From: an uncultured Bacteroidota bacterium
Lineage (GTDB): Bacteria; Bacteroidota; Ignavibacteria; UBA10030; UBA6906
Assembly: GCA_963734955.1 (NCBI GenBank)
Contig: CAVTJO010000011.1
Location: 457,698-521,697 of the forward strand
DNA: 64,000 nt
Direction of reading: 5' to 3'
Below are positions 2,862 through 36,399 of this stretch, piece by piece. Every line of letters begins with the position of its first letter. Position 1 is the stretch's first letter. Under the pieces are notes generated by a model that did no database searches, was not told the origin of the DNA, and saw only the letters and a list, made by a program, of their open reading frames with translations. The translations under genes and the position numbers were made by a program.

Positions 2862-3159
2862 TGCTCTCCAGAAAATATGACACCAAAGCTAACGAATTGC
2901 ATCAACTTGCACAATGCCGCCATCGCTAGTCCCCTCCATAACAGCAACCGGGTTTCCGGGACGAAATGCCGCGGGTCCTCCCGGCAAAAACATACTTTTA
3001 AATCCGAGTAGAGGCAATACCATATTTGTGGTACGCTGCATCTTTGTGAAAGTCGTGCACAGGTTGATTCGGCAGGAGGGGCGAAGATGAGTCACTTTTA
3101 CTTCCGCGGGCGAAAGAAATACCTCATCGGGAGTTCACTTGGACTTGCAGCACAGGATC

Positions 3160-5690
3160 TTATTTGACGACGACCATTTTCTTTGTGTCGACATACTTTC
3201 CGGCTCTCAACCGGTAGAAGTACAATCCGCTCGCCGTACCGCCAGCGTTCCATCGCACTGAATGCAGTCCCGATACCATCTCGTTGTTTATCAACGTCGC
3301 TACCTCCTCTCCAAGTATGTTGTATACACTTAACATGATGTGGCCGGCCCTGGCAACGGAAAACCGGATGGTTGTGGTGGGATTGAATGGATTGGGATAG
3401 TTCTGGCTCAACGAGTAATTGATTGGAGCGCGAGGGGGGTTGACCTCAGATGATTGTGAAGATATCCCAACTTTCATTCCTGCACCAAAGCTCGATACCC
3501 ATATTTCGGATGGCGTGAATGGATTGAAGAAGACTCGCTCGGGTTGACGGAATACGTATGAATCGACTAGATCAAACGATGGGCTCACGGTGTTGATATC
3601 TGCGCTTCGCCATAGACCATTTGTTTCGGTGGTAACATAGAGCTCGTTCATATTGAGGGGATTGAATGTGCACGAGGTAACACGGTCGAGGCTGTTAATG
3701 CGAGTCCAAAGAACCCCGCGGTTCGTTGTTCTGTACAATCCTCCGAGGCCATTCGGTGAGCCTCCCCACCCGCTGAAGACACCAACATACCAAGTGTTCT
3801 GGTTCGGATCATTCGCATCGACGACGATATCTTTCGTCCAGTACCGCATGCCGTTGTCACTTCGATCGATCCAGCTGGATCCATGATCGGTACTTACGAA
3901 TACACCGGAACTGGCCGTGAACGTCCCGCTTGAGTTCCGTCGTCCGGAAAAAGTGCAAACGACTGTGCCATCATTCAACACTATAATAGACGCTGGATGC
4001 CCTTCAGTTCTTGGAGGAACCGTGACGCGGTTCCAGGTCGAAAGAGAGTCATTTTGAATATTGTTCGAAACGAATATCCCACCTTGCGTCGAGTGAATGA
4101 CACTAGCGTACATCCTGTTCGCATCTGTCGGATCAACCGCAACCCAGAATACAGGATGACCGAACGAATGAAGAAGCCACCATGCCGCCCCACCATTTGT
4201 TGAATAGATGATCTTTCCCTCAGCGTCATTTGCATCAAGGATGTTATCCTGAAGCCGGGTGCTCTGATACATATCGTGGATATTGGAAGTTGCAGCATAC
4301 AGCTTTCCCGTGGACGGGTGTCTGACAATCCTGTACATCGTGTTGGCAGCATGACCGGTGTAGTTGAACGACCAACTGTTGCCACCATCCGTACTCCGCA
4401 CACCCTTGATGTCGGAGAAGCATGCGAACATGTTCTGCGTGTCGAGCCAGAACAACTGCCAGCACGTGGTGTTCTCCAATCCTATGCTGTGATATGCCTT
4501 CCTGGGTGGAGTATTCGAACCGGCCGGATTCTGATCCGCTGAAGCCACATACGCCTGCCGCCAACCCGTTCCGCCGTTGGTGGATACGATGAACAAATCC
4601 GAAATCCGAGAACACAATTCTGGATGGATCATCAGCTGAAACCGTGATTCCAAACGGACATTCAGCATATCCCCAACCGCGGTCGCCGCCGGTGCCACAC
4701 CAACCTGTTGCGATATTCTGGTTGTTGGAGACGTTGAACGTGTGCGTCCAGCTCGACTCCCGCATTCGTTGTCTTCATGATGTTCGGCACGCCGGATGTA
4801 TTGCTGCCGCCGAGATACACCGTGTTGATATCGTTGGACGCCATTGTCACAAGCATCAGGTAATCCGTCCCGACTGAAATCCCCGTCATCCGGGGAGTCC
4901 AATTGCCGGAACCATAGTCAAGCGAATAGACACCACGCAAGAAGTCCCAGTAGTCCGACGCGGGCATGCCGGCATAGATGCTGCTCGCCGTTCCGGTCAG
5001 ACAGAACAGGCGGGTTGTTGTGCCTTGCCGTGCACCCGCAAAGGAGAAGATCGCCTCGCCAGATGCAATTCCGGTTACCGTGCTTGTGGTGAATGAGCTC
5101 CCACCATTCGTTGAAATCAGAAGACCGTCATTCGTTCCAATAAAGATGTTGTTCCCATCGAAGAAGACACCTCCCACGACAATTCCCGCACCACTGTTGA
5201 GCGCATGATGAACTGCGGAAAAGGCCCTTCCACTGTCTGCCGAAAAGTAGAGATCACCGTAGTATGATATCAGAACCCGCGCCGGTAAGTTGTAATCGAC
5301 ATTGGTGCTGAATGTCTCCTCCGAAGGATCGGGATTACCGGGAAGCACATTCCAACTGGACCCGCCGTCTGTACTTCGGACCGGCAAGGCAAGATCATTC
5401 GCGTAGCTTATACAATAGAGAAGGTTGGGGCTGACAGTGAATTGTACCCTGGAGTTGTGCCCGCCTTGAATCGACTGAAAAGGTACGGTTGAGAACGACA
5501 GGCCGAAATCGGTTGTGTGGAACAGCTCGCTCATATCGCAGCTGACATAGAACTCATCGGGACGTGCCGGATTGATGCTTGGAGCAAAGAGCGCTCCACC
5601 GCCGCCAACACCGCGGGATGACCATTGCGTCGGTTGAGAGAAGGCTGCACACACCGCGGTAAGAGCTGTAAACAGAATTGCCCACCTCAT
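3160..5690 (-). CDS. T9SS-secreted BNR/Asp-box repeat (sialidase-like) protein, interrupted by two apparent 1-nt frameshifts
   Basis: ORF 4662..5690 has a signal peptide (MRWAILFTALTAVCAAFSQ) and BNR motifs (STDGGSSW, STNGGSSF). ORF 3160..4902 has BNR motifs (STNGGTGW, STDGGNSW, STNGGAAW, STDHGSSW) and the T9SS C-terminal domain (NYPNPFNPTTTIRFSV...KMVVVK). The two ORFs overlap over 4662..4902 in different frames. A third frame (ORF 4244..4765) carries the bridging sequence: 'TTNAGV|SWTHTF' restores a BNR motif if one G near 4755 is removed. Confidence 0.6.
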
Positions 5691-5706: not shown

Positions 5707-8658
5707 CTATTTTAGCAAAAGAAGTTTTCGCGTTTCGGTATACTCTCCGGCCTTTAATCTGTAGAAGTATACACCGCTCGCCAAACCTCCGGCATTCCAC
5801 TGTGCGATGTATGTTCCCGCGACCTTCTCTTCATTTACCAGCGTTGCCACTTCCTGGCCGAGAGCATTGAAGACCTTAAGCTCAACGTGACCGTTCCTCG
5901 GAAGTGCAAACCGGATCATCGTACTCGGGTTGAACGGGTTGGGATAGTTCTGAGAAAGCGAGAAGGCTTCGGGGATCTCTCCGCCTTCATCCCGTACCGA
6001 GGTTTCAATCTGGCGATACTTGATGGTCTTAAACACGCTCGATGCACCATTTTGCAGCACTGCACCAACATAGACATCTCCCTGGTTGGAGATAGCGATT
6101 GGATACTGATACCAGGAGTTGGCACCGTTGTCCTCAAAACCGGTGGACCATCTCTGTACTCCATCCGGACTGAATGCCCGAGTCTGATATTCCACAATAG
6201 ACGGCGTGATATGAATGCCGGCGATATAGGCGTTCCCGGAATTATCCAGCGCCATGTACGATCCGAGGCAATCCGTGATGATGAGATTCCAAAGAATCGC
6301 TCCACCATTGCTGATCCTGGCAAGCCCACCGGATGAGTTTCGGACAAGGACATTCTCCGAGGGATCGAGGGCGATTGAGTTGCCTGCAAGCGGAACGGAC
6401 CAGACACTCGTTCCGGCAGGATTGAGCTTTCTCGTTGATCCTGTATCGGACGTTATATACACGTTGCAGGCATGGTCAACCGAAAGTGCGGATGCGCCGC
6501 CGGGATATACCCATCGTAAATTTCCATCCTCGTCGTACTTCACAACCCTGCGACCTCCGGCAACGATAACGTTGTTCGAATCATCCACTGCAAGCGCGGT
6601 CGTACCTTCTCCCTGGGTTGAATCAAATGTGGCCATCCACAATTGGTCCCCTGTGGGGCCGTACTTAATTGTTACGTACTGCAACAGCCCGGGAAAAAGC
6701 TGTTGATAGCCGGTGACCAAGACGTTTTCACTCTGGTCAAATTCCATGTCAATACCATAGACGAGAGCACCATGTCTGCTTCCATAGGTTGCGGCCCAGA
6801 CTTGCTGGCCAAGAGGGTCGTACTTCACCATCGTAAACAGAGGAGCGTTGCCATCCCAAGCCACCGAGTCTCCGTTTGCAAGGACATAGAGGTTCCCTGA
6901 ACGGTCGATTCTCAGGGCGCAGGGAACATTGAATGACTGCGAGAAACCACTGTAGCGGGCAAGCCATTCAATGGTTCCTTCTGGGTTGTACTTGATGGTC
7001 AAGATATCGCTGGCCCAAGGTGCGGTGATGCTTGTGCCTGTGACGTAGACGTTGTTTGAATCGTCCACCACCATTGCATACACCTGATCCCATGAACGAG
7101 TGCATTCCCTCGTGTGGATCCAGTTTCGGACTCCGTTCGATGCATACTTCAGCATGAGCATATCGGTCGCCTGCTCTCCACCTCTTCCTCCGACGATGTA
7201 GAGATTACCCGTAGGATCGCACACGATTTTGTTTGCGGCAAGACCGTTATAGTAAGGGGTTTCGTAACGAGTGTCATACGATGCCCTCCACTCCTCGTCA
7301 CCGGAGGCGGAGAACAATGCCGTGACGATTGCATAGTATTTTTCGTATCCATAAGATGGTGCTGCCGCCCAGGTAACATATGGCGAGCCGGTCGGGTCCA
7401 GGGCGACATCGACAGGCACCATACGGTCAGTGTCATTGGTAACCGATGTCCATTGGAGCTGACCGCCTGGACCATACTTGCATAGGGACAGAGAATCGGC
7501 TCCATAGGACCACCAGTATCCGCCAAACAATCCGACCACATAGATATTCCCTGCATGATCGGTCGCTGTGCGCATACCAACAGTACCTTGAGTGTGAGGC
7601 CCAGAGTCAAAAGTTGACCATTGCAAAATCCCGGCCCAGTTGTACTTCATCGTCAGAGATCTGAAGTTGTTGTTCCACCAATAATTGTGCGCGCTCTGAA
7701 CATATCCCGTGATCACGACATTGTCTGAATCATCAAGTGAGAAATCAGACGGAATGGCTGAAAGAGTATCATCTGGCGTATACGTGACTGTCCATTGCCG
7801 CCCCCCCGAGGAGGAATACTTCAGAATAACAGTCGAATAGAGCGAGAAACTGGCGCCTATTGAATCGCAACTCTTTCCAACGACGTACACATCTCCACCG
7901 TTGCTGCACGCGATCCCGATTGGCTGATCATTAAACTGCGCTGCACCCGCGTATCTATCCACCCACTGCTCCACACCATTATTGTCATACTTCACGGTGG
8001 CAAAGTCATAGTTGTTACCCAACCCCATCATCCGGGCGCTTTCACCGGTAACATACACGTTACCATTCCGATCAATCGCAATCGCAATGGGAACATCCCC
8101 GGCATTCCCCGTCCCGTTGTATCGCGCAACCCATTGTTCCTGCCCCGCGCCATTGTACTTGACGGTGGCATAGTCAAACCCGTATTCACCACTGCTCACT
8201 CCGGTCACGTACACATTCCCGGCATCGTCCACAACAATTGCGTTCGCCGCGTCGAAGTCGTGTGCAGGTCCGTCATATGCCGCAGACCATATCTCGACAC
8301 CTGCAGAATTGTATTTTATTGTGAGATAGTCATAGGAGCTCATCGGACTCTCGGCCTTGCCAGCAACATAAATATTCCCCTGAGGATCGACAGCGACCGC
8401 AGTTGCTTCGGCATGTCCCTTCAAAGCAGATGAAGAGTAATATTTCACCCATTCCGCCTGCGCGCTATCGAGGACGGAATACTGGCTTCCTGGAAGCTGT
8501 ATTCGGCTCGACGAGGTGGAGAATGACCTATCAGCTGGCAAACTTTTGGACTGGCGCTTCAAACTTGTTTGCCCAAACGAAGCACAAACAGCGACCGAGA
8601 GAAAGACGCCGGTCAGGAAAGAGCAAACAGAAACGTCCACAAAGCTCTTGCAGTTCAT
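5707..8658 (-). CDS. T9SS-secreted SBBP beta-propeller repeat protein
   Basis: 983 aa with a signal peptide and many 'GN(V/I)YV(T/A)G' repeats (PQGNIYVAG, AGNVYVTG, NGNVYVTG, ...). It ends in the Por C-terminal sorting domain (NYPNPFNPSTMIRFALP...LLLLK). Confidence 0.75.
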   Translation of the reverse strand: MNCKSFVDVSVCSFLTGVFLSVAVCASFGQTSLKRQSKSLPADRSFSTSSSRIQLPGSQYSVLDSAQAEWVKYYSSSALKGHAEATAVAVDPQGNIYVAGKAESPMSSYDYLTIKYNSAGVEIWSAAYDGPAHDFDAANAIVVDDAGNVYVTGVSSGEYGFDYATVKYNGAGQEQWVARYNGTGNAGDVPIAIAIDRNGNVYVTGESARMMGLGNNYDFATVKYDNNGVEQWVDRYAGAAQFNDQPIGIACSNGGDVYVVGKSCDSIGASFSLYSTVILKYSSSGGRQWTVTYTPDDTLSAIPSDFSLDDSDNVVITGYVQSAHNYWWNNNFRSLTMKYNWAGILQWSTFDSGPHTQGTVGMRTATDHAGNIYVVGLFGGYWWSYGADSLSLCKYGPGGQLQWTSVTNDTDRMVPVDVALDPTGSPYVTWAAAPSYGYEKYYAIVTALFSASGDEEWRASYDTRYETPYYNGLAANKIVCDPTGNLYIVGGRGGEQATDMLMLKYASNGVRNWIHTRECTRSWDQVYAMVVDDSNNVYVTGTSITAPWASDILTIKYNPEGTIEWLARYSGFSQSFNVPCALRIDRSGNLYVLANGDSVAWDGNAPLFTMVKYDPLGQQVWAATYGSRHGALVYGIDMEFDQSENVLVTGYQQLFPGLLQYVTIKYGPTGDQLWMATFDSTQGEGTTALAVDDSNNVIVAGGRRVVKYDEDGNLRWVYPGGASALSVDHACNVYITSDTGSTRKLNPAGTSVWSVPLAGNSIALDPSENVLVRNSSGGLARISNGGAILWNLIITDCLGSYMALDNSGNAYIAGIHITPSIVEYQTRAFSPDGVQRWSTGFEDNGANSWYQYPIAISNQGDVYVGAVLQNGASSVFKTIKYRQIETSVRDEGGEIPEAFSLSQNYPNPFNPSTMIRFALPRNGHVELKVFNALGQEVATLVNEEKVAGTYIAQWNAGGLASGVYFYRLKAGEYTETRKLLLLK

Positions 8659-8914
8659 GTCAGGACTCCCACCATGTTGTACACTTCAGGAGTTGCTGCA
8701 ATCAATGTGCCTTGAGCGCCATCACCGAGCATGGGGGAAAAGAGCAAGTCCAACGGAGTCCCAAGTCAGACTTACCTATGTCGCGACACTATTTTACTGT
8801 TGAAATTCCAATCATCTCCACAGAACCTTCAAACTCACGCGCTTTTCCGATAGCGTGACTTGGCACAATCTTCGCCCCATTGAGGTGATAGAGTAAGGAC
8901 ATTTAGAGGATGAG

Positions 8915-9301
8915 ATGATAAGACGATGTTTTCTCTCGACCTGCGTTGCATTGGTTGTAATGGTCTTTCAGGACGGAAGCTCATTTGCGGGTGACAACAC
9001 TTCTCAAGTATCACGTCTTGTTGTTCAAACCGATCTCCTTGGTCTTGCCTTCCGTGCACAGCAATTCTATTTGGCACCGACTTCGAGGGGAGGTGGTGGT
9101 AAGTCCTTCTACGGAATGTATTCTATGGCGCAATTAACGTCGAAGCCAATCACTTCAAATGGAACATACTCGGTTATCACCACCGGTTACACATATCTTG
9201 TCCTTCACGGACAAGGGGTGGAGGGTGGAAATGACGGAGCCCCTATCAGCATTGATGCGATAGTGTATCCGGATAGCGTCGCGTTCACGTTCAACAATTA
9301 G
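8915..9301 (+). CDS. Small secreted/anchored protein, pseudopilin-like; paralog of 55558..55947
   Basis: 128 aa with a hydrophobic N-terminus, then 'DLLGLAFRAQQFY...GGGGKSF...SKP..SNGTYS...VL.G.G.EGG.DG...S......DS.A...NN'. The motif layout is conserved with the ORF at 55558..55947. Confidence 0.4.
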   Translation: MIRRCFLSTCVALVVMVFQDGSSFAGDNTSQVSRLVVQTDLLGLAFRAQQFYLAPTSRGGGGKSFYGMYSMAQLTSKPITSNGTYSVITTGYTYLVLHGQGVEGGNDGAPISIDAIVYPDSVAFTFNN

Positions 9302-9324
9302 GCCCAATCAAAAAACACTTCGTC

Positions 9325-9356
9325 CCGCTTGCTCTCGCTTGCGGGACGAAATGCGT
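9325..9356 (+). terminator. Hairpin downstream of the small gene at 8915..9301 (putative terminator)
   Basis: The sequence tcgtcccgc-ttgctctcgcttgc-gggacgaa forms a stem cgtcccgc/gcgggacg and is followed by a T-containing tract (aaatgcgtttctcc). Confidence 0.3.
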
Positions 9357-9417: not shown

Positions 9418-10536
9418 CTACTTCAGCAGAATAAACTTCATCGTTTCCGAGAATGTTCCCACCTTGATCCGGTAGAAGTACACACCCGAAGACATTGTCT
9501 TGCCCGATGAATTCTTTGCATCGAATCGCACCTCGTATGTCCCCGCGTTCTTCTGCTCATTCACCAGTGTTGCTACTTCCCGGCCCGTGATGTCGTAGAC
9601 CTTCAATGTCACCGGCCCGTCATTCGGCAAGGCGTACCTGATCGTGGTGGTCGGGTTGAACGGATTGGGATAGTTCTGATCAAGCCGGTATGCAGAAGGG
9701 ATCAGGTTCTCGATTGGCTGCGCGCTGAATCCCCTGCCGGTTTCCTTCAGCCACAACTGTGAGACGATGGCCGAACCCTCACCCATCGCGTTGATGCTGA
9801 TGGTTACCTCGCCTCCTGCATAGGATTCTTTTGGAAGCGTGATGTAGTCAACGCGTTGTGCGGTTGTTGAAACAGGAACCGGATCGTGGAGGCGGATGCC
9901 ATTGACAGTCATATCCTGAAGCCGCGCCGTGTTGTCGTGGGCGACATACTCGGCGGCAATCCGGTATTCGCTCGACGGATCCAGCCCGGTGAATCTATAA
10001 CGGACAGACGATGGATCCTCGTTGGCCGTTTGCGATGGGGCAGTGCCCCACCGGACGGAGCTCCCCAAAACAAGGTGTGCATCGTCTGCCGGAGTTGCGC
10101 TTCCGCAGTCCTCATGGTAATACATGGGGAGCGAAAACTGCGTCTGCGATATTACCGGTTCATCACGGTACGTCTGTGTGGCTGTCACTTCATAGCGATA
10201 CCCACCTGGAGGAATCTGTATCCCTGCGTCCGAGCAGTTGGTCAACGACATAGGCGATGCCGTTACTTGAGCCGTTCCATTTCCCGATGGCGATACTTGT
10301 CGGGGAATCAAATCCTTCAAACGTCGCGGCAAGAGTTGCGATGTCCGGCCCAGAGCATACTCGAAGACTTTGTTCCGGGAAGCGTCAGCAGCGTAGAGGA
10401 GATCATCGGAAAATATCCAGGGGTGTTCCATTGTCGCTATGGGCGATATCGGTCGGGCCCTGAAACGAATACGTAAATCACATAAACAGCGTAAAGTGAT
10501 TCTGCACCAATATATGGATTCCATGAAGACTGTCAA
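9418..10536 (-). CDS. T9SS C-terminal-domain protein lacking a recognisable N-terminal signal peptide (possibly truncated or pseudogene)
   Basis: 372 aa. The C-terminus is NYPNPFNPTTTIRYALP...KFILLK (Por sorting domain). The start is apparently TTG, and the N-terminus (MTVFMESIYWCRITLRCLC...) is not signal-like. Only 124 nt lie upstream before a divergent gene. Confidence 0.55.
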   Translation of the reverse strand: MTVFMESIYWCRITLRCLCDLRIRFRARPISPIATMEHPWIFSDDLLYAADASRNKVFEYALGRTSQLLPRRLKDLIPRQVSPSGNGTAQVTASPMSLTNCSDAGIQIPPGGYRYEVTATQTYRDEPVISQTQFSLPMYYHEDCGSATPADDAHLVLGSSVRWGTAPSQTANEDPSSVRYRFTGLDPSSEYRIAAEYVAHDNTARLQDMTVNGIRLHDPVPVSTTAQRVDYITLPKESYAGGEVTISINAMGEGSAIVSQLWLKETGRGFSAQPIENLIPSAYRLDQNYPNPFNPTTTIRYALPNDGPVTLKVYDITGREVATLVNEQKNAGTYEVRFDAKNSSGKTMSSGVYFYRIKVGTFSETMKFILLK

Positions 10537-13578: not shown

Positions 13579-14295
13579 ATGAACGCATTGCCCAACGTTC
13601 CACCCATCTATAAACGCGAGTTGCGCTCCTATTTCAACTCACCGGTTGCATACGTCGTCATCGTTGTGTTCCTCGCGGTTCTCGGATGGTTCTTCACCAA
13701 CAACCTGTTTCTTATGAATGTCGCATCGCTCCGCATCGTGTTTGACCTGGTGCCGCTGATCTTCCTCTTCTTCATTCCCGCAATCACCATGCGACTCATT
13801 GCGGAGGAGAAGAAAGCCGGCACGTTGGAGCTGCTGACGACGAAGCCTGTACGCGATGTTGAGATTGTCCTGGGAAAGTTCCTTGCTGCCTGGACGCTCC
13901 TTGCAGCCGCCCTTGCCCCAACACTCTTCTATCTCATCACCATAATGACACTTGGCAAGGTTGACCTTGGCCCGGTCATCAGCGGATACTTCGGGTTACT
14001 TCTGATGGGCGGCGTGTATATCGCCATCGGGCTGCTGGCCTCAAGCCTCACGGAAAACCAAATCGTCGCCTTCATCCTCAGCTTTCTCATCGTTTTTGTT
14101 TTCTTTATCCTCGACAAGGTCCTGATGTATGTGCCGGACGCACTTGCCTCAACACTGGAGTTCCTTTCGATGGATTACCATTTCTCAAACATTGCCCGGG
14201 GGGTCATCGATACGCGCAACCTGATCTATTTTGGATCCTTGCTCGGGTTCTCACTTCTCCTTGCAACCGTTTCACTTGAACGACGAAAGTGGTAG
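13579..14295 (+). CDS. gldF: ABC-2 type permease (GldF-like)
   Basis: 238 aa, polytopic membrane protein. The N-terminus MNALPNVPPIYKRELRSYFNSPVAYVVIVVFL is typical of GldF/ABC-2 permeases. Confidence 0.65.
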   Translation: MNALPNVPPIYKRELRSYFNSPVAYVVIVVFLAVLGWFFTNNLFLMNVASLRIVFDLVPLIFLFFIPAITMRLIAEEKKAGTLELLTTKPVRDVEIVLGKFLAAWTLLAAALAPTLFYLITIMTLGKVDLGPVISGYFGLLLMGGVYIAIGLLASSLTENQIVAFILSFLIVFVFFILDKVLMYVPDALASTLEFLSMDYHFSNIARGVIDTRNLIYFGSLLGFSLLLATVSLERRKW

Positions 14296-14302
14296 ACACC
14301 GT

Positions 14303-15886
14303 ATGAACACGAAACCTTTGAAAACACAGGCGCTGCTCCGCATTGGACTCACGATTGGAATCCTCATCCTCGTCAATATTATCTCGGTTCGCATCTTCGC
14401 CCGAATGGATGTCACGGACAAAAAAATCTATACACTTTCGGATGCCAGCAAGCAGGCGATGCGCAATCTGGATGACAGGGTGACGATCAGAGCATACTTC
14501 ACGGAGGACCTTCCCTCACCGTACAACATGAACCGACGCGAATTGCTCGACGAGTTGAACGAATACAAGGCATTTTCGCGGGGAAACCTCCAGTTCGAAT
14601 TTATCGACCCATCGGGCGAAAAGGGAGAACAGGAGGCGCAACAACAGGGAATCCAGCCGGTGCAGGTGCAGGTGGTGAAGGAGGACAAGTTCGAGGTGAA
14701 ACGGGCCTACATGGGACTGGTGATATTGTATGAAGACAAGAAAGAAGTCCTCCCGGTTATCCAGAACACATCAACCCTCGAATACGACATCACGAGCACG
14801 ATCAAACGACTGACAACAAAGACTCAGAAAAAGATCGGCTTTCTCTCGGGGCAGGGCGAGCCACCATTGAGTGAGCTGAACCGCGTGAAGGGAATTCTTG
14901 ACAAACAATATCAGGTTATCACCGTCGACATTAGCAAGGGTAAAGCTGTCCCCACCGATGTCGCCGCTCTGATCATCATGGCCCCGACGCAGCGTTTTTC
15001 TGAACCGGACAAGTACCAGATCGATCAGTACATCATGGGGGGAGGCAAGATTGCGTTCCTGATCAACAAGGTGGATGCGAATTTACAGCAGCGGTTCGGA
15101 CGCACAACCGACCTGAACATTGAAGACCTTTTGGAGAACTACGGTCTGCGCATCAACCCTGACCTGGTGCGAGATAGTCGCTGTGCAAGTGTCAGCATCG
15201 TTCAACAGCAATTTGGCTTCAACATTCAATCGCAAGTGCCATTCCCTTACCTCCCCCTGGTCAGCACCTTCAACAAGGACAACATGATGGTGAAGGATCT
15301 GCAAGGCATTGTGCTGTTCTTTGCAAGCTCGGTCGACACGACAGGTCTCGCAGCCAGGAATCTTCATGGCGAGATCATCATGCGCAGCTCAAAGGAGAGC
15401 GGACGACAAACCGGCTTCTTCATGTTTGATCCCCTTCAACAGTATAAGCGGGAGGATTTCGGGGAAAAGGAAATTCCGCTGGCAGCGCTCGTGTACGGGC
15501 AATTTAAGAGTTTCTACGCGGGAAAGGATGTACCAAAGGACACATCCGCGGGGGCAATTGCGCCCAGCGGCAACACCATTCCGATGAGTCCGGCAAGTCG
15601 AATCATCCTGGTAGGTGATGGAGATTTCGGGCGCGACCAGTATCTCGGCAACAGGGACAATCTGACATTCTTCGCAAACATGGTGGATTACCTCGTGGAC
15701 GATGCCGGCCTGATTACGATTCGGTCGAAGGACGTCAGTATGCCGCCCCTGGAACAGGTGTCTGATGGTTCCAAGAAAATGGTGAAGTACGGCAATCTCA
15801 TTGTACCACCACTTCTCGTGCTCGGCTATGGTTTATTCCGATGGCGTGCACGCAAAGCGCGCAAGAAGATTATGAGCGCCGCATAA
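14303..15886 (+). CDS. gldG: GldG-like ABC-transporter auxiliary protein (Gldg family)
   Basis: About 527 aa from the ATG at 14303 (MNTKPLKTQALLRIGLTIGILILV, an N-terminal TM). The body is large and soluble and there is a C-terminal TM (LIVPPLLVLGYGLF). Gene order is ABC-ATPase, permease, GldG, DUF4340. The ORF-track start at 14231 overlaps gldF and is less likely. Confidence 0.65.
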   Translation: MNTKPLKTQALLRIGLTIGILILVNIISVRIFARMDVTDKKIYTLSDASKQAMRNLDDRVTIRAYFTEDLPSPYNMNRRELLDELNEYKAFSRGNLQFEFIDPSGEKGEQEAQQQGIQPVQVQVVKEDKFEVKRAYMGLVILYEDKKEVLPVIQNTSTLEYDITSTIKRLTTKTQKKIGFLSGQGEPPLSELNRVKGILDKQYQVITVDISKGKAVPTDVAALIIMAPTQRFSEPDKYQIDQYIMGGGKIAFLINKVDANLQQRFGRTTDLNIEDLLENYGLRINPDLVRDSRCASVSIVQQQFGFNIQSQVPFPYLPLVSTFNKDNMMVKDLQGIVLFFASSVDTTGLAARNLHGEIIMRSSKESGRQTGFFMFDPLQQYKREDFGEKEIPLAALVYGQFKSFYAGKDVPKDTSAGAIAPSGNTIPMSPASRIILVGDGDFGRDQYLGNRDNLTFFANMVDYLVDDAGLITIRSKDVSMPPLEQVSDGSKKMVKYGNLIVPPLLVLGYGLFRWRARKARKKIMSAA

Positions 15887-16015
15887 GATCGCAATTCACG
15901 GTGAGCACACCTTGGCCGACTGATTTCCACTTCGGGCCCGGGATTCGAACCATATCATTGATTTCGCCCTTCATGTGCTCGGGGCGATGGTACACCGTTA
16001 CATTGATCGCTCGAC

Positions 16016-16906
16016 ATGAAACGCAGCACCGTCTACTCCGTCATTGTTCTGATCGCCCTTGCCATTGCGGCGTTCTTCACCCTCCATCGCGAAGGCGAGG
16101 TCAGCTCGACCGGATCCACCGGCCAGATGCTTGTGGACTACGATTCAACTGCCATCGACAAGCTGGAGCTTGTTTCTCCTGCAGAAACCGTGGTGCTGGA
16201 AAAGCAAGCAGGCACATGGATGCTCACCTCACCCATTACGTATAAGGCAGACCAGACATCCGTTGCTTCAGCGGTAGGAAAGGGGCGAAGAATAGAATTG
16301 AAGAGCCTTGTCTCGACGAACCCTGAGAATCAAAAACTCTTCCAGGTTGATTCGACAGGTACTCTCGTAAAGGCGTATGCCAGTGGCACTCTCAAGGCAT
16401 CGTTTGTAGTAGGAAAACCAAGCAGCTCGTACACGGAAACCTATGTGAGACTGAGCGGCTCAAACAATGTACAGCTTGCGGGTGACGTCATTTCCTCTTT
16501 CTTCACCAAGCAGACAAAAGATTGGCGCGACAAGACTGTTTTCAAGACAGATGAGAGTACCCTCAAGAATGTCGCATTCCAATACGGTGACACTGCCTTT
16601 GCATTGTCGCTGCAGGACAGTCTCTGGCGTGTCGGGAAGGATTCGGCCAACCAAACAGCGATCAAGCCAGTGCTGACTGCACTTGCAAACATCCAGGCCG
16701 ATGATTTTATCGATTCCGCAGTCACACCAACTTCCAAGCCGACCTCAATCATTAATGTCGAGGGTACACAGATACGATTCTACAAGAAGGACGCCACCAA
16801 GTATCTCGTTCAGACCTCTCAGTCGCCGCAGTGGTTTGAAGTACAGAATTGGAGAACGACAAATTTGTTGAAGCGGAAAACAGACTTCTTGCCGGCGAAG
16901 AAGTAA
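16016..16906 (+). CDS. DUF4340-like protein (commonly follows GldG)
   Basis: 296 aa with a signal/anchor (VYSVIVLIALAIAAFF). Both position and size match the DUF4340 proteins found downstream of Gldg genes. Confidence 0.5.
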   Translation: MKRSTVYSVIVLIALAIAAFFTLHREGEVSSTGSTGQMLVDYDSTAIDKLELVSPAETVVLEKQAGTWMLTSPITYKADQTSVASAVGKGRRIELKSLVSTNPENQKLFQVDSTGTLVKAYASGTLKASFVVGKPSSSYTETYVRLSGSNNVQLAGDVISSFFTKQTKDWRDKTVFKTDESTLKNVAFQYGDTAFALSLQDSLWRVGKDSANQTAIKPVLTALANIQADDFIDSAVTPTSKPTSIINVEGTQIRFYKKDATKYLVQTSQSPQWFEVQNWRTTNLLKRKTDFLPAKK

Positions 16907-16928
16907 CCCCTAATTACTCTGCAAAAGG

Positions 16929-16960
16929 GAACGCCCGGACTTACTCAGCCCGGGCGTTCC
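16929..16960. terminator. Strong GC hairpin between convergent genes (putative bidirectional terminator)
   Basis: The sequence gggaacgcccgg-acttactcag-cccgggcgttcc is a perfect 12-bp stem. It lies between the end of the + strand gene (16906) and overlaps the stop of the minus-strand gene (16941). TTTT follows on the minus strand. Confidence 0.35.
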
Positions 16961-18185
16961 GTTCGAGAACCTCCTTCAACGAGTTACCTTCTCCGTCCAC
17001 CGCCTCTCGACCCCGACTCTCCGCTTCGATCACTCTGCGGTGCTTGACGAGGTGCCGGAGCACGGTCAACCTTGGAGCTTCGGACCTGCGGCTTCTCATT
17101 TGCCTCGAATCTTCACGTCGAGGAGACGGCGATATGCGTTCAGGACGTCTTTGCACCTGGCGTTCCCGCTGCAACTCTCGTTGAGCTGGCTGACGGCGTC
17201 CGCGATCATACGACGGCTGCTCGCTCTGTCGCTCGGTATTACCTCGCCGGGCCTCATTGCGCACCTGAGGTTCATTTCGACCGCGGAACTCGTCTGCCCG
17301 CCGCAGGTCGCGACCGGCTTCACGATCCACATCTCTCGACCTGACATCCATATCCCGTGTGTCAAGGGGAATTCTGCGGCCTGATTCACGCACATGTCCC
17401 GGACGGACGGCCGCTTCATCTGCTGAACGTTCCGCAATTCGAGGACGATATACTTCCACCCGTTCACGCCCGCCATCGCGCACGATTCGATCCACAGGCT
17501 GGTCACCCACATCGCGAATCTCAGCCCGCTCCAGCCGGATATTCCCGCGACGCTCAACATAGGCGCGGTCCGGCCCTCTTGTCACAATACGCCCCCCATC
17601 GTAGCGGACGCTTCCAGCAGAGCGGGTGCGTCCAATGTAGCGGGCATTATTATCTGTTCGATAGATATACCGATCAACATCCGGATCTGCAATGTACCTG
17701 CAATCGACAAACGACCACCATGAATGGGGCGTTATCCACGATGACCGATAGTGGATGCCGAACCCCACGCTGAAGACCGCATACGGACTCAGCGGAGCCC
17801 AGCCAATGCAGTCACCCCCGTAGCGCCATTCAACCCACGCTGGAGCCCAGTCGTACCCGGGAATCCATACCCATCCGTAGAAATCGTCATAGTACCAGCG
17901 TCCGTAATGGTATGTCGCCCACGCCCAAGGCTCGCTGGAAGCCCAGTACCATCCATCGTCAGTCCAGCACCACTGTCCATTATAGTACGGTCGCCAAGAG
18001 GCAGCAACCCCTCCCGGCCGCCAGGCATACACACCTCCATCACACTGTATCCAGTCTCCTTCGTTGCCCAGTGACGAATAGAACACACCAAAAGAGATCC
18101 CACCCGGATCAGCTGATGAGGTGGAGAGACCCGACAGCAGAATTCCAACTATGAGCAGTATTTTCTTCATGACCGTTCCTCTCAA
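16941..18185 (-). CDS. Secreted Trp/Tyr-rich domain protein with long Arg/Glu/Asp-rich low-complexity C-terminal tail
   Basis: 414 aa with a signal peptide (MKKILLIVGILLSGLSTSSA). The W/Y-rich block is WRPYYNGQWCWTDDGWYWASSEPWAWATYHYGRWYYDDFYGWVWIPGYDWAPAWVEW. About 200 aa of RE/RD-rich sequence follow (RRGNIRLERAEIRD...RERQVQRRPER). Confidence 0.5.
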   Translation of the reverse strand: MRGTVMKKILLIVGILLSGLSTSSADPGGISFGVFYSSLGNEGDWIQCDGGVYAWRPGGVAASWRPYYNGQWCWTDDGWYWASSEPWAWATYHYGRWYYDDFYGWVWIPGYDWAPAWVEWRYGGDCIGWAPLSPYAVFSVGFGIHYRSSWITPHSWWSFVDCRYIADPDVDRYIYRTDNNARYIGRTRSAGSVRYDGGRIVTRGPDRAYVERRGNIRLERAEIRDVGDQPVDRIVRDGGRERVEVYRPRIAERSADEAAVRPGHVRESGRRIPLDTRDMDVRSRDVDREAGRDLRRADEFRGRNEPQVRNEARRGNTERQSEQPSYDRGRRQPAQRELQRERQVQRRPERISPSPRREDSRQMRSRRSEAPRLTVLRHLVKHRRVIEAESRGREAVDGEGNSLKEVLERNARAE

Positions 18186-21398: not shown

Positions 21399-22241
21399 TC
21401 AAATCACTTCCGCGTCGCTCTCCTCCATCCAACCCACCTTGCCATCAGCGAGACGGACCTTCACCCATTCATTGACACTGTCAGTGATTGTGACTTTCAC
21501 GCCGCTATGGAGAACAAACGCATCGCTGCTCTTCGGGTCCGGAGAGTTCTTGACTGTCGTGATCTTCGCAGTGACAACCGCAGCGTTCAAACGAGTCAAC
21601 TCACCAAGCTTCCCGACAAACAGCGTGATACACAGGATAAGGGCCACCAGGCTGGTGCCGGCACTCAGCACTCCGAACCGCCGAAGTCGATATGTGCGGG
21701 CAACAACCACCAGGCTGAGAGATCCGACAAGAAGAACGAACAAGCCATACGCTATCCACGTAATTGCATTCAGCGAAAATGCCGCCTTGATGCCATCCCA
21801 GTAGTCCCAGATAAACAACCTTGGGGTCGGTTCAATCTTATCCGTGATCATCAGGTTGGCAAGTTGAAGATTATGATTCACGTCGTCATCATTGGGCATG
21901 AACCTGCGTGCGCGCTCATAGTTGAGAATTGCCTTCCCAATATCGCCCAACTTGTAATAGGTGTTTGCCAGATTGTAGTACAGTTCTCCACTGACAAGTC
22001 CATTGTGAAGAATCGACTCGTATGCATCTCTCGCATCCGCAAACTTCGCTTGCTGATACAATTGATTGCCCCGGTCAAACACCTGCTCCGGCGTCTGGGC
22101 AATAGACAATGTTGAAGCAAGGGTGGTCAGAACAAGAACAAGCACAAAAAGCAGGTTGATGTTTTGTACCGAACGACCCCATCGGGATTCTCCGCATCGA
22201 TATACCCGCCCCGATTTCATGATTTTTGATTCGTGGGTCAT
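21399..22241 (-). CDS. batE: BatE-like TPR-repeat protein with C-terminal SH3b-like domain
   Basis: 280 aa. TPR repeats (AKFADARDAYESILHN, ELYYNLANTYYKLGDIGKAILNYERA), two TM segments, and a C-terminal SH3-like region (HSGVKVTITDSVNEWVKVRLADGKVGWME). It is the last gene of the Bat-like operon. Confidence 0.6.
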   Translation of the reverse strand: MTHESKIMKSGRVYRCGESRWGRSVQNINLLFVLVLVLTTLASTLSIAQTPEQVFDRGNQLYQQAKFADARDAYESILHNGLVSGELYYNLANTYYKLGDIGKAILNYERARRFMPNDDDVNHNLQLANLMITDKIEPTPRLFIWDYWDGIKAAFSLNAITWIAYGLFVLLVGSLSLVVVARTYRLRRFGVLSAGTSLVALILCITLFVGKLGELTRLNAAVVTAKITTVKNSPDPKSSDAFVLHSGVKVTITDSVNEWVKVRLADGKVGWMEESDAEVI

Positions 22242-24088
22242 TTCTTCAATGTCCGCTCCAACTCAACAATAAGACGCTTTGCCTCATCAAATGTTTTTTG
22301 AATTGCTGTGGCTTCAAGACTTGTCGGAGCAAACCGTGCCATCTCGCATGTTTCCCACAGCAACTTGAGCGCCTTGGGAATCTCACCGTTCACCGATCGA
22401 GTGTTCAGCGCGGCAAGCACATTCTCGATCGAGAGATCCGCCTGCTGTATGTTCAACTTGTCTCCAAGGTACTTGTGCAAGGCACGGGAAACCTCTGAGT
22501 AAAATTCGAGCTTCTTCGACGAGCTTCCCGAGGTTTTTGAAGCAAGGAGCTGTTCCGCCTGTTTCAACCCCCTCTGCGCGACTTTGAGTGCGCGCCGATT
22601 ACGATAACCTGCTGCATCCAACATTTCCGCCTGGCGTTGGCGGGCATAAACCAGCGTTCCGGCAAACCCGAGAAGGGGAAGGAAGACCAGCGCCACAAAC
22701 ACTCCACTTTTGTAAAGGAACTCTCCCCGTCGCGAGAATGAGGGCTGCCACACCTTGATAAACCGGATATCCTGGCTCAGCAGCTGAACGTCCTCCTGAT
22801 TTCCCCCGGCAATTACCGGAGGTGCTAGAGCGGCTCCCTGGGCAACGTTCAACTCAATTTGTGGCGACTGCAGACTTACATATTCACGCTTGCCAAGATC
22901 GAAGTAGGAAAATGTCAGGGGCTTGATTGTCTTGCGTCCGGGATACCGCGGGATCAAAAGATACTCGAATGTTTTGCTCCCGGAGATCTTCCCTTCCTGC
23001 CGATTGATGTCGTCGGTTACCTTGGGTGGGTATTGCTCGAAATCCTTCGGCAACTCGAGTTCCGGCACTTCAAGTACTTTGATGTTCCCGGTCCCGGAGA
23101 TGGTAACCTTCAATGTCACCGGTTCATTCGTCTTCGTGGTTCTTTTGTCGACAGCTGTGTTCATTGCGAACCTGCCGACGGCACCTTTGAAACTTGGCGG
23201 TGCCCCTGAGGGGAGCGGATCGACCTTGATCTTGATGGGCTCGCTCTTCACTTTGTAATTCACGGTGCGCCCAAACGGATCACGGAAAAAAGCATCAAAT
23301 GGATCGAGGGATCTGGTTTGTACCTGTACCTGCGTAGTCACCTCCATCGGTGCCACCTCGAGTGAGCCTGACTGGGTGGGAAACAATGCCATTTTTCGGA
23401 TGACTCCCACGCGGTATTGCTTACCGTTGATGGTCTCGTTGGAGAGAGCAATATTTTTGGGATTCTCAATATCCTCTCCCCAGAACCCTGTCATGGTCGG
23501 GCTTTTGTCCACGCCATAGTTTGACACCGAGACGCGGGTATACAGCTTGAACGTGAGGTTAATCTGCTCTCCGAGGATGACGCGGTTTTTGTCAACGACC
23601 GCTCTGAGAAAAAGGTTATCCCCGATCTGTGCGCCGACATCGTCGGGTGGAGGAGCTTGCTGCTTCTGACGCGGAGATCCTTTCACAACCTCAATCACGA
23701 TGGGCTGGGTGGCATATTGCTTCCCGTCGGCTTCAATTGTTGCCGCAGCGATGGTGAACTTCCCCATATCCTTTGGTTGAAGCACATAGCTGTACGTCGT
23801 CGACGAAGAGACCGCCCCGTTAATGAACTGCATGTTCGTGGATTGGTTTGGACCCGACATGATATGGAACCTGCCGAGGTCGGGAAGCTTCATGTTCTTC
23901 CCTCCTCCCACCCCCGCATTGCTGAGCGTAAATGAGAGGGTGAACTGATCGCCCAGTGCGACGGGGTTTTTGTCCACACCTGCCTCAAACGATGCGTCTC
24001 CCGCAACCGCGGCTCCGGTGCAAAGCAGAAGAGCCATGAACATGATGAATGAAACACTATGTCTGCGCTGCCTCTTCACGGCTACCAA
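22238..24088 (-). CDS. batD: BatD-like protein
   Basis: 616 aa with a signal peptide, a large periplasmic portion and a C-terminal TM (VFVALVFLPLLGFAGTLVY). It lies between the BatC-like TPR protein and the BatE-like protein, as in Bacteroides bat operons. Confidence 0.65.
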   Translation of the reverse strand: MVAVKRQRRHSVSFIMFMALLLCTGAAVAGDASFEAGVDKNPVALGDQFTLSFTLSNAGVGGGKNMKLPDLGRFHIMSGPNQSTNMQFINGAVSSSTTYSYVLQPKDMGKFTIAAATIEADGKQYATQPIVIEVVKGSPRQKQQAPPPDDVGAQIGDNLFLRAVVDKNRVILGEQINLTFKLYTRVSVSNYGVDKSPTMTGFWGEDIENPKNIALSNETINGKQYRVGVIRKMALFPTQSGSLEVAPMEVTTQVQVQTRSLDPFDAFFRDPFGRTVNYKVKSEPIKIKVDPLPSGAPPSFKGAVGRFAMNTAVDKRTTKTNEPVTLKVTISGTGNIKVLEVPELELPKDFEQYPPKVTDDINRQEGKISGSKTFEYLLIPRYPGRKTIKPLTFSYFDLGKREYVSLQSPQIELNVAQGAALAPPVIAGGNQEDVQLLSQDIRFIKVWQPSFSRRGEFLYKSGVFVALVFLPLLGFAGTLVYARQRQAEMLDAAGYRNRRALKVAQRGLKQAEQLLASKTSGSSSKKLEFYSEVSRALHKYLGDKLNIQQADLSIENVLAALNTRSVNGEIPKALKLLWETCEMARFAPTSLEATAIQKTFDEAKRLIVELERTLKK

Positions 24089-32428: not shown

Positions 32429-33103
32429 CTATCCAAACAACCTGTATTTCAGTGCCTTCGAGACGGCAGCGGATTTCGAATGGACCTGTAGCTTCTCGTA
32501 GACCCGCTTGATATGAGACTGCACCGTAAGGGGACTGATGAAAAGCTTCTCCGCGATCTTTTTGTAGCTGTGGCCCTCGACGAGTGACTGCAAAATGTCC
32601 AGCTCGCGCGGAGTCAGGTTGAGTTCCTCCGCTGTCGCCGTCCCCCGCCCTTCTCGTCCCCGTACCATGGTGAGCAAACGTCGGGCAATCGAAGCGCTCA
32701 TCGGGGCCCCGACGTGTATCTCACGGATGGCACGAATGAGCTCTGAGGATTCGGCATTCTTCAGCACGTACCCGGATGCTCCGGCACAGATCGATTGGAA
32801 TATCTTCTCATCATCGTCGTATACTGTATGCATAAGAACATCCACTGATGGATAACGGCTCTTGACGAGTTTGACTCCCTCAATGCCCGACATCCCCGGA
32901 AGACCTATGTCCATGAGCAGAACATCGGAGGTCATTGTCTTCAGCGCGTCCAACACGGCCTCGCAGGAACCGTATGCCCCGATGCACTGTATCCCTTCCG
33001 AGCCGTTGATGATATCGACGATCGTTTCCCTGATGCGTCCCCGATCCTCCACAATCATCACCGTGATGGGATGGGGCGCCGTTGCCGGCTCTGTCTTGGT
33101 CAT
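32429..33103 (-). CDS. Response regulator, LuxR/FixJ family (REC + HTH)
   Basis: 224 aa. The REC domain has the phospho-acceptor context VLLMDIGLPGMSG. The C-terminal LuxR HTH is LTPRELDILQSLVEGHSYKKIAEKLFISPLTVQSHIKRVYEKL. Confidence 0.85.
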   Translation of the reverse strand: MTKTEPATAPHPITVMIVEDRGRIRETIVDIINGSEGIQCIGAYGSCEAVLDALKTMTSDVLLMDIGLPGMSGIEGVKLVKSRYPSVDVLMHTVYDDDEKIFQSICAGASGYVLKNAESSELIRAIREIHVGAPMSASIARRLLTMVRGREGRGTATAEELNLTPRELDILQSLVEGHSYKKIAEKLFISPLTVQSHIKRVYEKLQVHSKSAAVSKALKYRLFG

Positions 33104-36100: not shown

Positions 36101-36399
36101 ACAACTGCATTGACAGTGGATTGGGACAGTCCCTGTTCGAGGGAGAGGTGATTGAACTTCAACAACGGAGCCTGACCGTAACGGGCATCATGGTAAACTC
36201 CCGGCAGGTTCTGAGAAAGTCCAGAACACACACACAGACAAAGCAGCGCAGCAACCAGGTGTGTCGGCGGGGATCTCCACGCTGATCTTACAGTCGAATG
36301 CAATATCGTCTCCGAGGGCACGAGGACGAGCAAGGCACTAACCGATTCGTACAAGTTGACCGGGCGACAGGAGCCATTCGAGTGTCGCGCATCGACCAT
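33100..36399 (-). CDS. Hybrid-type sensor histidine kinase with two-component regulator propeller (Reg_prop) repeats, Y_Y_Y domain, TM and HisKA_3/HATPase_c
   Basis: 1099 aa. Many propeller repeats (MWFGTQDGLNRFDG, LWIGTMRGGLNRYS, LWIGTWSGLCRH, ...) are followed by a Y_Y_Y region (YAYKLEGLDANWV...GRYVLRVKG), a TM (WWFRGAFVLTLVSLLLLMY), a His box (ERIRASIATDLHDDIGSTLTEI) and an ATPase (NGTGFD...GNGLRNMRARA). It overlaps the response-regulator gene by 4 nt. Confidence 0.85.
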   Translation of the reverse strand: MVDARHSNGSCRPVNLYESVSALLVLVPSETILHSTVRSAWRSPPTHLVAALLCLCVCSGLSQNLPGVYHDARYGQAPLLKFNHLSLEQGLSQSTVNAVVQDGQGFMWFGTQDGLNRFDGYQIVVYKHKANDTNSISDNGIWCMVRDRLGDLWIGTMRGGLNRYSGITDRFTSFRHDPANPFSIGENNVISLFEDSRGALWIGTLSKGLDRFDQRRNQFIHYRYDPGDQQSLVDSTVWCIAEDRRNNLWIGTWSGLCRHSVKDDSSHRFVRYIHVDGDPSSLSGNNVRTMLVDHNGVLWVGTWGAGLNRFDERTGTFKHYRAIRGNPRSLSSDLVLSLSEDPMGNLWVGTGDAGLDLYDPIHDDFAALRHDPNNPKSLNNDIVTSIHNDRAGGLWIGTGAGGVNWYDATKNRFTLIRDDQNNPNDLDGNDVWAITEDAAGELWVGTYGNGLNRYDRESDRFVHYEHVASNPRSISQDNILSICASKDGDLWIGTEGGGLDRYDSAKKGFVHYRKDQRNVNSLGGNEVTRILEDSKEYLWIGTNGYGVDRYDRRNNVFHHYRPEDKNAASVSGTSIMALFEDREGNVWVGTWGAGVSRYDRQTDSFVRFQNDPDDPRSLNNNTVLALYQDAEGAIWLGTYGGGLNRYDKGTRTFAHYTEKDGLPNNVVYGILPDDRGNLWLSTNKGLSKFNLETRTFKNYDVNDGLQGNEFNQGSYYRSRSGRLFFGGINGFNTFFPDSIKDNPNIPPVVLTSFKVFDVPIQLPQSISATNSLALSYDQNFFSIEFVALNFTSPEKNKYAYKLEGLDANWVNADTRRFASYTNIDPGRYVLRVKGSNNDGVWNEHGVSMTITIAPPYWKTWWFRGAFVLTLVSLLLLMYRYRVNKLLEIERIRASIATDLHDDIGSTLTEIALFSDVGIRQISSLTPGRPITGHEVEKVTTLLEEIGHTSRTLIDAMNDIVWAIDPKNDSFEYLLLRMKTHASRMMEAKGINYDIEIPQELSEIELPLGFRRRFFLIFKEAINNIIKHAHPTKVSLTVKKDAGSLIMTIMDNGTGFDSSVASLGNGLRNMRARAIALGGDLSISSTSANGTTITLRAVIP

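Follow-up and report, generated by a model that had tools for sequence, protein, structure and literature searches.

Type 4 pilins are defined by a leader peptide that ends in Gly or Ala and precedes 20-25 hydrophobic residues, often with a glutamate at position 5 (Glu5), which pairs with the N-terminal amine of the next subunit (PMC10191384). The class III signal peptide and the dedicated prepilin peptidase are treated in reviews and phylogenomic surveys as defining and universal for type IV filaments (PMC10191384, PMC6668835). In the genome of Melioribacter roseus, pilT, pilQ, pilB and pilC have been reported, and neither pilA nor pilD was found (PMC3534657); a "Pili IV cluster" is mentioned, with no detail, in a paper on Caldithrix, and the so-called type II secretion system ("T2SS") of Cytophaga was flagged as aberrant by Denise et al. 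(PMC6668835). Here we describe two genes, termed A and B, in a 64,000-nucleotide stretch of DNA (the window) from an uncultured Bacteroidota bacterium (assembly GCA_963734955.1, contig CAVTJO010000011.1, positions 457,698 to 521,697 of the forward strand). In the reading that we favour with reasonable confidence, B is a subunit of a type IV pilus of the Fibrobacterota-Chlorobiota-Bacteroidota (FCB) phyla that needs no prepilin peptidase and carries Gln5 in place of Glu5, and A is a pilin head exported by the Sec pathway. Type IV pilins are well known as a kind, and what is new is the N-terminal class, with no leader, Gln5 and no linked peptidase. No description of the family was found in searchable full text, a scope that leaves subscription-only papers out of reach.

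Genes A and B are paralogues that share a pilin-like fold

An initial annotation, made from the sequence alone, had proposed that the window encodes two paralogous, minor pilin-like or cell-surface proteins with a non-canonical leader. The two open reading frames (ORFs) were found where this annotation had placed them, on opposite strands and with 46 kb between them:

8915..9301, plus strand: gene A, 128 amino acids (aa), a diverged paralogue with a pilin head and an alpha1-C helix, its N-terminus replaced
55558..55947, minus strand: gene B, 129 aa, a member of a pilin-like family without an apparent leader peptide, N-terminus MGQQQLLL

In a formal BLASTP alignment of residues 27-128 of A with residues 29-129 of B, 41 of 102 positions are identical (40%), with 59% positives and one gap (E=8e-25). 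This similarity is far above chance, and the motif string on which the proposed paralogy had been based agrees with the identity line of the alignment; A and B are true paralogues. The two proteins differ at their N-termini, which read MGQQQLLLILLGVIIIG in B and MIRRCFLSTCVALVVMVF in A. No third copy was detected in the window by tblastn with four family members as queries. Both genes are under purifying selection, the ratio of nonsynonymous to synonymous substitution rates (dN/dS) against the orthologues in a sister genome being 0.26 for A and 0.07 for B.

The AlphaFold2 model of B, which was built from a 44-sequence alignment (mean predicted local distance difference test score, pLDDT, 89.7; predicted template modelling score, pTM, 0.70), shows a continuous helix over residues 2-55, then a glycine-rich loop and a four-stranded antiparallel sheet, corresponding to the lollipop fold of pilins, in which a long alpha1 packs on an antiparallel β-sheet. 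The model of A likewise combines a long N-terminal helix with a four-stranded sheet (pLDDT 83.2). Foldseek searches with the B model gave a probability of 0.99 to PilV and a template modelling (TM) score of 0.65 to full-length PAK pilin. Searches of Pfam-A (2025) and NCBIfam (June 2026) returned nothing but noise at E<=10 for A, for B and for a family member encoded in an operon, and the curated hidden Markov models (HMMs) of the N-terminal methylation site (PF07963 N_methyl and TIGR02532) were unmatched by all three proteins. This is in keeping with the earlier failure to assign A and B to a described family. Neither protein has a G-F-T-L-I-E box, as had already been remarked.

Gene B belongs to a large family with a constant N-terminus

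More than 2,187 homologues of B were found in a 90%-clustered collection, and a full HMMER scan covering 1.84 billion representatives recovered, with a threshold of E<=1e-3, at least 2,272 clusters formed at 50% identity, of which 1,502 lie at or below 1e-10. Among GTDB species representatives, at least 415 relatives were found. Family members have lengths of 125-142 aa and are carried by Ignavibacteriota, Melioribacteraceae (including the cultured Stygiobacter electus 09-Me), KSB1, Calditrichota, Kryptonia and Zixibacteria and, within Bacteroidota, by Rhodothermaceae, Balneolales and metagenome-assembled genomes labelled Cytophagia. The family is spread over the FCB group and is curated by no database; the few names given to its members by their sources are "hypothetical protein" or the COG-derived "PilE" and "PulG". 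The features that define the start of B are the following:

55933..55947, minus strand: codons 1-5 of B, the invariant M-G-Q-Q-Q signature, with Gln5 where canonical pilins have Glu5
55867..55932, minus strand: codons 6-27 of B, alpha1-N (LLLILLGVIIIGAAVVIGMTLF), a 22-residue hydrophobic stretch and presumed membrane anchor and filament core
55951..55953, minus strand: in-frame TAG two codons upstream of the ATG of B (55942-55962 on this strand translates as VAG*CMG)

The family N-terminus, M-G-x-x-Q5-L-L-L, hardly varies, and the exact start MGQQQLLL is present in 200 of 275 retrieved proteins. All 241 members that begin with MG have Gln at position 5, more than 96% of them have L7 and L8, and 82% have G12; in the 44-sequence alignment, G12, G17 and G23 are each at least 90% conserved. 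Position 2 is Gly in these 241 members and Ala in a few others (MAQQQ...), and nothing else. Glu5 is restricted to rare variants such as MGQRELLL in the major family. The register M1..Q5-L6-L7-L8 corresponds to F1..E5-L6-L7-I8 of canonical pilins, and Gln5 appears from this alignment to take the place of the canonical Glu5. The hydrophobic segment of B, L6-F27, is helical in the model and its 22 residues fit the length of 20-25 residues expected of alpha1-N. Beyond the N-terminus, the family consensus continues as NRDA..DL..LA.RAQQYYRRP...GGGGNSF.G and is followed by a variable head.

Translation in this family begins at M1 of MGQQQLLL, as indicated by close upstream stop codons, by ribosome-binding sites and by the alignment of the first residue. 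All 128 MGQQQ-type starts across 83 loci are ATG codons. An in-frame stop lies upstream of them at a median distance of 4 codons, and in 123 of the 128 cases no other in-frame start intervenes. An AAGGAG sequence lies 7-10 nt upstream of most of these starts, and in the HMMER search profile position 1 pairs with target residue 1 in nearly all representatives. For B itself, the TAG two codons upstream of the ATG excludes an N-terminal extension or leader peptide. The suggestion of a non-canonical leader thus needs to be revised for B, where there is hardly any leader at all: at most the dipeptide Met-Gly could serve as one, and the family as a whole appears to have essentially none. The N-terminus of A carries instead a Sec-like segment with n-, h- and c-regions, which is described below.

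Many homologues of gene B lie in operons for type IV pilus-like machinery

Gene context was examined by two homologue look-ups and a BLAST survey of 82 fetched loci. Homologues of B are found directly upstream of PilC/PilB/PilT/secretin genes in 56 of the 82 loci, adjoining the platform and ATPase genes; many of the remaining loci are short contigs or orphan copies. Together with the helix-and-sheet models of both proteins, this context bears out the pilin-like reading of the initial annotation, and A and B rather likely belong to the type IV pilin superfamily. The operon is co-directional and conserved. It starts with one to three pilin genes, a T2SSF platform gene (PilC/GspF-like) and a gene for a 595-aa T2SSE ATPase (best match PilB), optionally continues with three ORFs of about 177, 214 and 402 aa, and then encodes a PilT-family ATPase of 408-424 aa (TIGR01420, 325.8 bits against a cutoff of 319.1). 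In 45 loci, the operon includes a PilT/PilU-family ATPase whose score exceeds the NCBIfam cutoff. Downstream of PilT are genes for a protein of about 510 aa with a weak C-terminal match to PilN, a protein of about 296 aa with a faint GspC-like match, and a 408-aa secretin, whose best match is PilQ at a weak score. The proteins of about 510 and 296 aa, conserved between PilT and the secretin (14937..17356 in locus L004), are probably divergent alignment proteins of the PilM/N/O type.

The three optional ORFs (14438..16849 in locus L001) are present in 28, 25 and 23 loci, respectively, and are located between PilB and PilT or, in divergent orientation, upstream of the pilins. Their N-termini consist of M-G or M-x and then a hydrophobic helix and read MGLGQTLL, MGSQTILD and MGRTAIYM; neither Pfam nor NCBIfam gives a hit for them. 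Within the 177-aa family, starts with Glu5 (MGHRELLL, MGSRELIL and MGHRELFL) are found as against MGLGQTLL with Gln5. These proteins might tentatively be regarded as candidate minor pilins that also lack a leader. For the family of B itself, the position as first gene of the operon, the occurrence in one to three tandem copies, the strong ribosome-binding site, the constant N-terminus and the variable head suggest that it is more likely to provide the major subunit than the minor pilin proposed initially.

The G.GD.K motif of A24 prepilin peptidases was found in no ORF of the 83 loci, in a motif screen of 10-kb flanks that used no HMM. The canonical G-[FM]-T-L-I-E box was also absent from every ORF of these loci.

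Gene A has a replaced N-terminus

Gene A belongs to a small derived subclade of the family, and three orthologues of it were found among 5.8 billion proteins. The features in and around the gene are the following:

8915..8989, plus strand: codons 1-25 of A, putative Sec-type signal peptide with an MIRR n-region, a 14-residue h-region (CFLSTCVALVVMVF) and a QDGSSFA c-region
8906..8910, plus strand: Shine-Dalgarno-like GAGGA, 4 nt upstream of the ATG of A at 8915
8894-8896, plus strand: in-frame TAA bounding the ORF of A, read from the sequence
9319..9350, no strand assigned: G+C-rich hairpin of 10 bp between the convergent genes A and 9418..10536, a likely terminator

Sec/signal peptidase I signals have a basic n-region, an h-region of 7-15 residues and small residues at -3 and -1. 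By inspection, the N-terminus of A looks like a signal of this type, with a basic n-region and a predicted cleavage site at SFA↓G that has small residues at positions -3 and -1. The 14-residue hydrophobic segment is too short to span a membrane and falls below the 20-25 residues of alpha1-N; the A model is of low confidence in this region (pLDDT 63-74). The same n-h-c layout is found in the three orthologues (MIRRVVVSACIGLAALIVQDGRSFAG). In the periplasm, A would probably be a non-polymerising pilin head, exported and then released or weakly anchored. A lipoprotein reading based on L-S-T-C at residues 7-10 was rejected, with just 6 residues before the would-be lipobox.

The public NCBI/ENA gene call for A starts at Met16 (8960; P0122, 113 aa) and omits the conserved MIRR and hydrophobic N-terminus. 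This N-terminus is kept by the orthologues P0121, P0123 and P0124, and the internal Met16 is missing from P0123 and P0124. The GAGGA site and the orthologues without Met16 favour the long start, and the Met16 start is probably mis-called. The dN/dS of 0.26 indicates that A is a working gene; a pseudogene reading was rejected on the same ground, the ORF being intact and its N-terminus kept in the three orthologues. Codons 1-26 of A (8915..8992, compared with 2982..3059 of the sister locus L083) show 0 synonymous differences from the 90% identical orthologue, as against 18 in the other 102 codons; this silent-site conservation at the 5' end may reflect a constraint at the nucleotide level or chance.

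The neighbours of A, and those of its 90% orthologue, encode proteins sorted by the type IX secretion system (T9SS). In the window, three genes around A (3160..4902, 5707..8658 and 9418..10536) encode beta-propeller or Ig-like proteins that carry a Por_Secre_tail domain for T9SS sorting at the C-terminus, which places the organism in the FCB group. A C-terminal sorting domain is absent from both A and B and, around A, is carried only by these neighbours. Involvement of A or B in the T9SS, which had been put forward for examination, was rejected on this basis; it goes no further than neighbouring cargo genes, to which A has no functional link. The hairpin at 9319..9350 has a folding free energy of -23.6 kcal/mol (z=-5.4) and none of 200 shuffled sequences folds as well; it was left uncalled by the consensus terminator scan, having a loop of more than 8 nt and no T-run. 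Scans for promoter and terminator consensus around A and B gave nothing exceeding the shuffled expectation.

Other members of the family carry the pilin head behind different N-termini. Between two and five tandem heads, each made of alpha1-C and the β-sheet, occur as repeat modules in P0127, P0128, P0137, P0199 and P0142; P0128 has a lipoprotein signal (LIGC) and three heads, P0137 a Sec signal and five heads, and P0127 a plain transmembrane anchor. In P0170, P0245 and P0174, an N-terminal zinc ribbon and a DUF4190-like membrane segment precede the fused pilin-like helix and head. The occurrence of heads behind lipoprotein, Sec, transmembrane or zinc-ribbon parts indicates that reuse of the head outside filaments is recurrent.

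Surroundings of gene B and other content of the window

B is flanked by two PAP2 genes and a gene of the OmdA family. The two tandem paralogous PAP2-family phosphatase genes (53081..54034 and 54041..54985) lie directly downstream of B on the same strand. A 154-aa ORF at 55077..55541 on the plus strand is antisense and adjacent to the 3' end of B; it is annotated as a gene in one public assembly, has no Pfam hit and is possibly spurious. The orthologue of B in the sister genome is 94% identical and likewise an orphan, in a partly syntenic region. At the DNA level, 55399..56189 of the window is 85% conserved with the sister-genome locus L084. This conservation runs past both ends of B, by about 240 nt on the upstream side and about 160 nt on the downstream side, and indicates that the whole monocistronic unit has been retained. 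No hairpin was found downstream of B, and an Rfam scan of the whole window returned no RNA family. Elsewhere, the window has ordinary FCB-group content, including a GldG-like ABC auxiliary protein (ABC_transp_aux; 14231..15886), a BatD-family protein (22238..24088) and a large Reg_prop/Y_Y_Y sensor histidine kinase (33100..36399).

Proposed mechanism and alternative explanations

It is proposed that B is translated directly as the mature form, consisting of M1-G2-Q3-Q4-Q5 followed by the 22-residue hydrophobic alpha1-N, with no class III leader to remove. B would enter the inner membrane co-translationally via alpha1-N, with its N-terminus in the cytoplasm and its head outside, and would undergo no proteolytic maturation; with nothing to cleave, a prepilin peptidase would be unnecessary. 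A PilC/PilB motor, encoded elsewhere in the genome, would then extract B from the membrane and polymerise it into a filament through a PilQ-like secretin, and a PilT-family ATPase would retract the filament. More speculatively, Gln5 instead of Glu5 would suit, in place of a salt bridge, an N-terminus left uncharged by a formyl-Met that is kept or by some other modification. Orphan genes of the B type may provide alternative major subunits. A would have kept alpha1-C and the β-sheet head and swapped alpha1-N for a short Sec-type signal; following export, the signal may be cleaved to release a soluble head or be kept as a weak anchor. In its widest form, the proposal extends to a whole clade of leaderless, peptidase-free type IV pili in Ignavibacteriota, Bacteroidota, KSB1, Calditrichota, Kryptonia and Zixibacteria, with respect to the major pilin and perhaps the minor pilins, in which an invariant Gln5, together with an N-terminus that is uncharged or carries a different charge, replaces the salt bridge between Glu5 and the N-terminal amine; we consider this generalisation about evenly balanced.

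Several points weigh against the leaderless pilus. Genes for PilB, PilC, PilT or a secretin are absent from the window, in which both A and B are orphans, so the machine in the genome of B is an assumption; the PilB-type ATPase and PilC-type platform are seen next to homologues, from which assembly of B would be extrapolated. The family profile gave, among PDB sequences, only a non-significant alignment of alpha1-N to Geobacter PilA (E=0.07), and since sequence similarity to canonical pilins is not significant, the case for homology is made from fold and gene context. For reading the 177-, 214- and 402-aa ORFs as pilins, hhalign gives weak support (E=0.0013 and 0.016, at low probability), and their profile hits in the PDB are non-significant. 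Ahead of its hydrophobic helix B has no positively charged residue, so the N-in topology is not derivable from the positive-inside rule. Prepilin peptidase genes are often unlinked, the absence of pilA and pilD from M. roseus rests on a 2013 annotation, and the restriction of position 2 to Gly or Ala is also compatible with the -1 rule for sites cut by prepilin peptidases, and so with a leader of 2 residues. This last point underlies the main rival explanation, in which Met-Gly is a minimal class III leader that an unlinked prepilin peptidase or a new enzyme cuts after Gly2; the mature Gln may then cyclise to pyroglutamate as in archaeal EppA-dependent pilins, and the family would be an extreme variant of canonical, peptidase-dependent processing. 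That 241 members have Gly, a few have Ala and none has any other small residue agrees with the rule that leaders end in Gly or Ala (PMC10191384), the 177-aa candidate minor pilin keeps a G-Q pair (MGLGQ, MNTGQ, MTNTGQ), and loci for mannose-sensitive haemagglutinin (MSH) pili likewise have no peptidase in linkage and make use of one encoded elsewhere (PMC6668835). Set against this, the peptidase motif occurs in 0 of 83 loci, pilD was reported missing in M. roseus, and counting from Met1 places Gln or Glu at position 5 in MGQQQ, in MGQRE and in the 177-aa MGLGQ and MGHRE, whereas counting from the Gly fails to do so; a Met-Gly leader is thus, in our view, unlikely, if worth serious attention. 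To our knowledge, an uncharged leader of 2 residues has no precedent.

Two lesser rivals concern the function of the filament or its existence. Instead of a surface pilus, the family may build a short pseudopilus in the periplasm that serves a type II-like secretion system, with A and B as pseudopilin variants for protein export. The Joint Genome Institute labels some members PulG, Bacteroidetes possess a secretion system derived from the type IVa pilus (T4aP) in the Cytophaga "T2SS" (PMC6668835, PMC5553014), and the operon secretin is short (408 aa) and scores weakly against PilQ. The operon nevertheless includes a PilT/PilU-family retraction ATPase at 45 loci, while classical T2SSs have no PilT; the Cytophaga system, with a canonical GspG and a Peptidase_A24, is a different one, and tandem or orphan copies whose heads vary are a usual feature of exposed major pilins. 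We regard a pseudopilus as improbable. Little more than a slim chance is also given to the explanation that neither A nor B is a filament subunit, both being exapted, membrane-anchored or periplasmic pilin-fold proteins that act independently of a machine, which the genome may have lost. Both genes, as well as their closest orthologues, are orphans with no machinery in the 64 kb, and the head has been reused repeatedly behind Sec or lipoprotein signals and in multi-domain proteins; for A alone, this non-filament explanation is the favoured one. B, on the other hand, retains the full invariant MGQQQLLL and the G12/G17/G23 pattern of operon-encoded members and is constrained along its whole length, including alpha1-N (dN/dS of 0.09 for codons 1-30, as against 0.07 for the whole gene), which is hard to explain for a mere membrane anchor, and orphan pilin genes far from the machine are normal for T4aP.

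Should the leaderless pilus be confirmed, prepilin peptidase would not be a universal core component of type IV filaments, and the family would be the pilA reported missing in Melioribacter roseus. This would explain why papers on Ignavibacteria genomes find pilB, pilC, pilT and pilQ without pilA or pilD, and it would mean that motif-based pilin finders (PilFind, IPR012902, TIGR02532) miss thousands of pilins. The family would also offer a natural experiment on the roles of leader cleavage, N-methylation and Glu5 in membrane extraction and subunit docking, and would make it possible to annotate the potential for motility, adhesion and DNA uptake in environmental lineages that are abundant and for the most part uncultured. 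The paralogue A with its Sec-type signal and the multi-head proteins indicate that the pilin head also has uses outside filaments.

Comparison with known systems

The closest structures to B are those of type IVa major pilins PilA/PilE, represented by Thermus thermophilus PilA4 (6xxd) and P. aeruginosa PilA (1oqw/8tum). Unlike these, the family of B has no apparent leader, no G↓F-T-L-I-E box and no linked prepilin peptidase, carries Gln5 instead of Glu5, is unmatched by N_methyl or TIGR02532, contains no cysteines and hence no disulphide-bonded D-region, and has a conserved GGGG-N-S-F loop after alpha1. Identity to the minor pilins PilV of Neisseria meningitidis (5v23) and PilE of P. aeruginosa (4noa) is just 16-21%; both of these are canonical prepilins processed by PilD, whereas the family of B has the genomic hallmarks of a major subunit. 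The major pseudopilin GspG of T2SSs (PF08334/TIGR01710), which is encoded in operons with GspC/L/M and without PilT, has no HMM match in A or B, and the operons of the relatives carry a PilT-family ATPase. Tad/Flp pilins are about 50-60 aa long in their mature form, have a G↓xxxxEY motif and are assembled with TadA/B/C, whereas A and B have 128-129 aa, a β-sheet head and no EY motif, and the ATPases of the operon best match PilB and PilT, not TadA. Archaeal EppA-dependent type IV pilins have Gln at +1 and resemble the family of B in that the hydrophobic helix begins at a Gly-Gln junction and that the N-terminus may be uncharged; they differ in having a charged leader of at least 10 residues, which is cut by an A24-family peptidase, and the family of B, which is without any Pfam hit, resembles them neither in sequence nor by HMM.

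The "T2SS" of Cytophaga hutchinsonii (CHU_3195-3201) is similar in being a type IV filament system that derives from T4aP, belongs to the same superphylum and has a divergent major subunit (PMC6668835). It has GspG (PF08334), a Peptidase_A24 within the cluster (CHU_3197) and no PilT (PMC5553014), whereas the B-type operon has PilT, no A24 peptidase and pilins that appear leaderless; identity of the two systems was rejected on account of the canonical GspG and the Peptidase_A24 gene in the Cytophaga cluster. Measured against the definition of type 4 pilins, the family of B retains the hydrophobic helix and a polar residue at position 5, while the leader appears to be gone.

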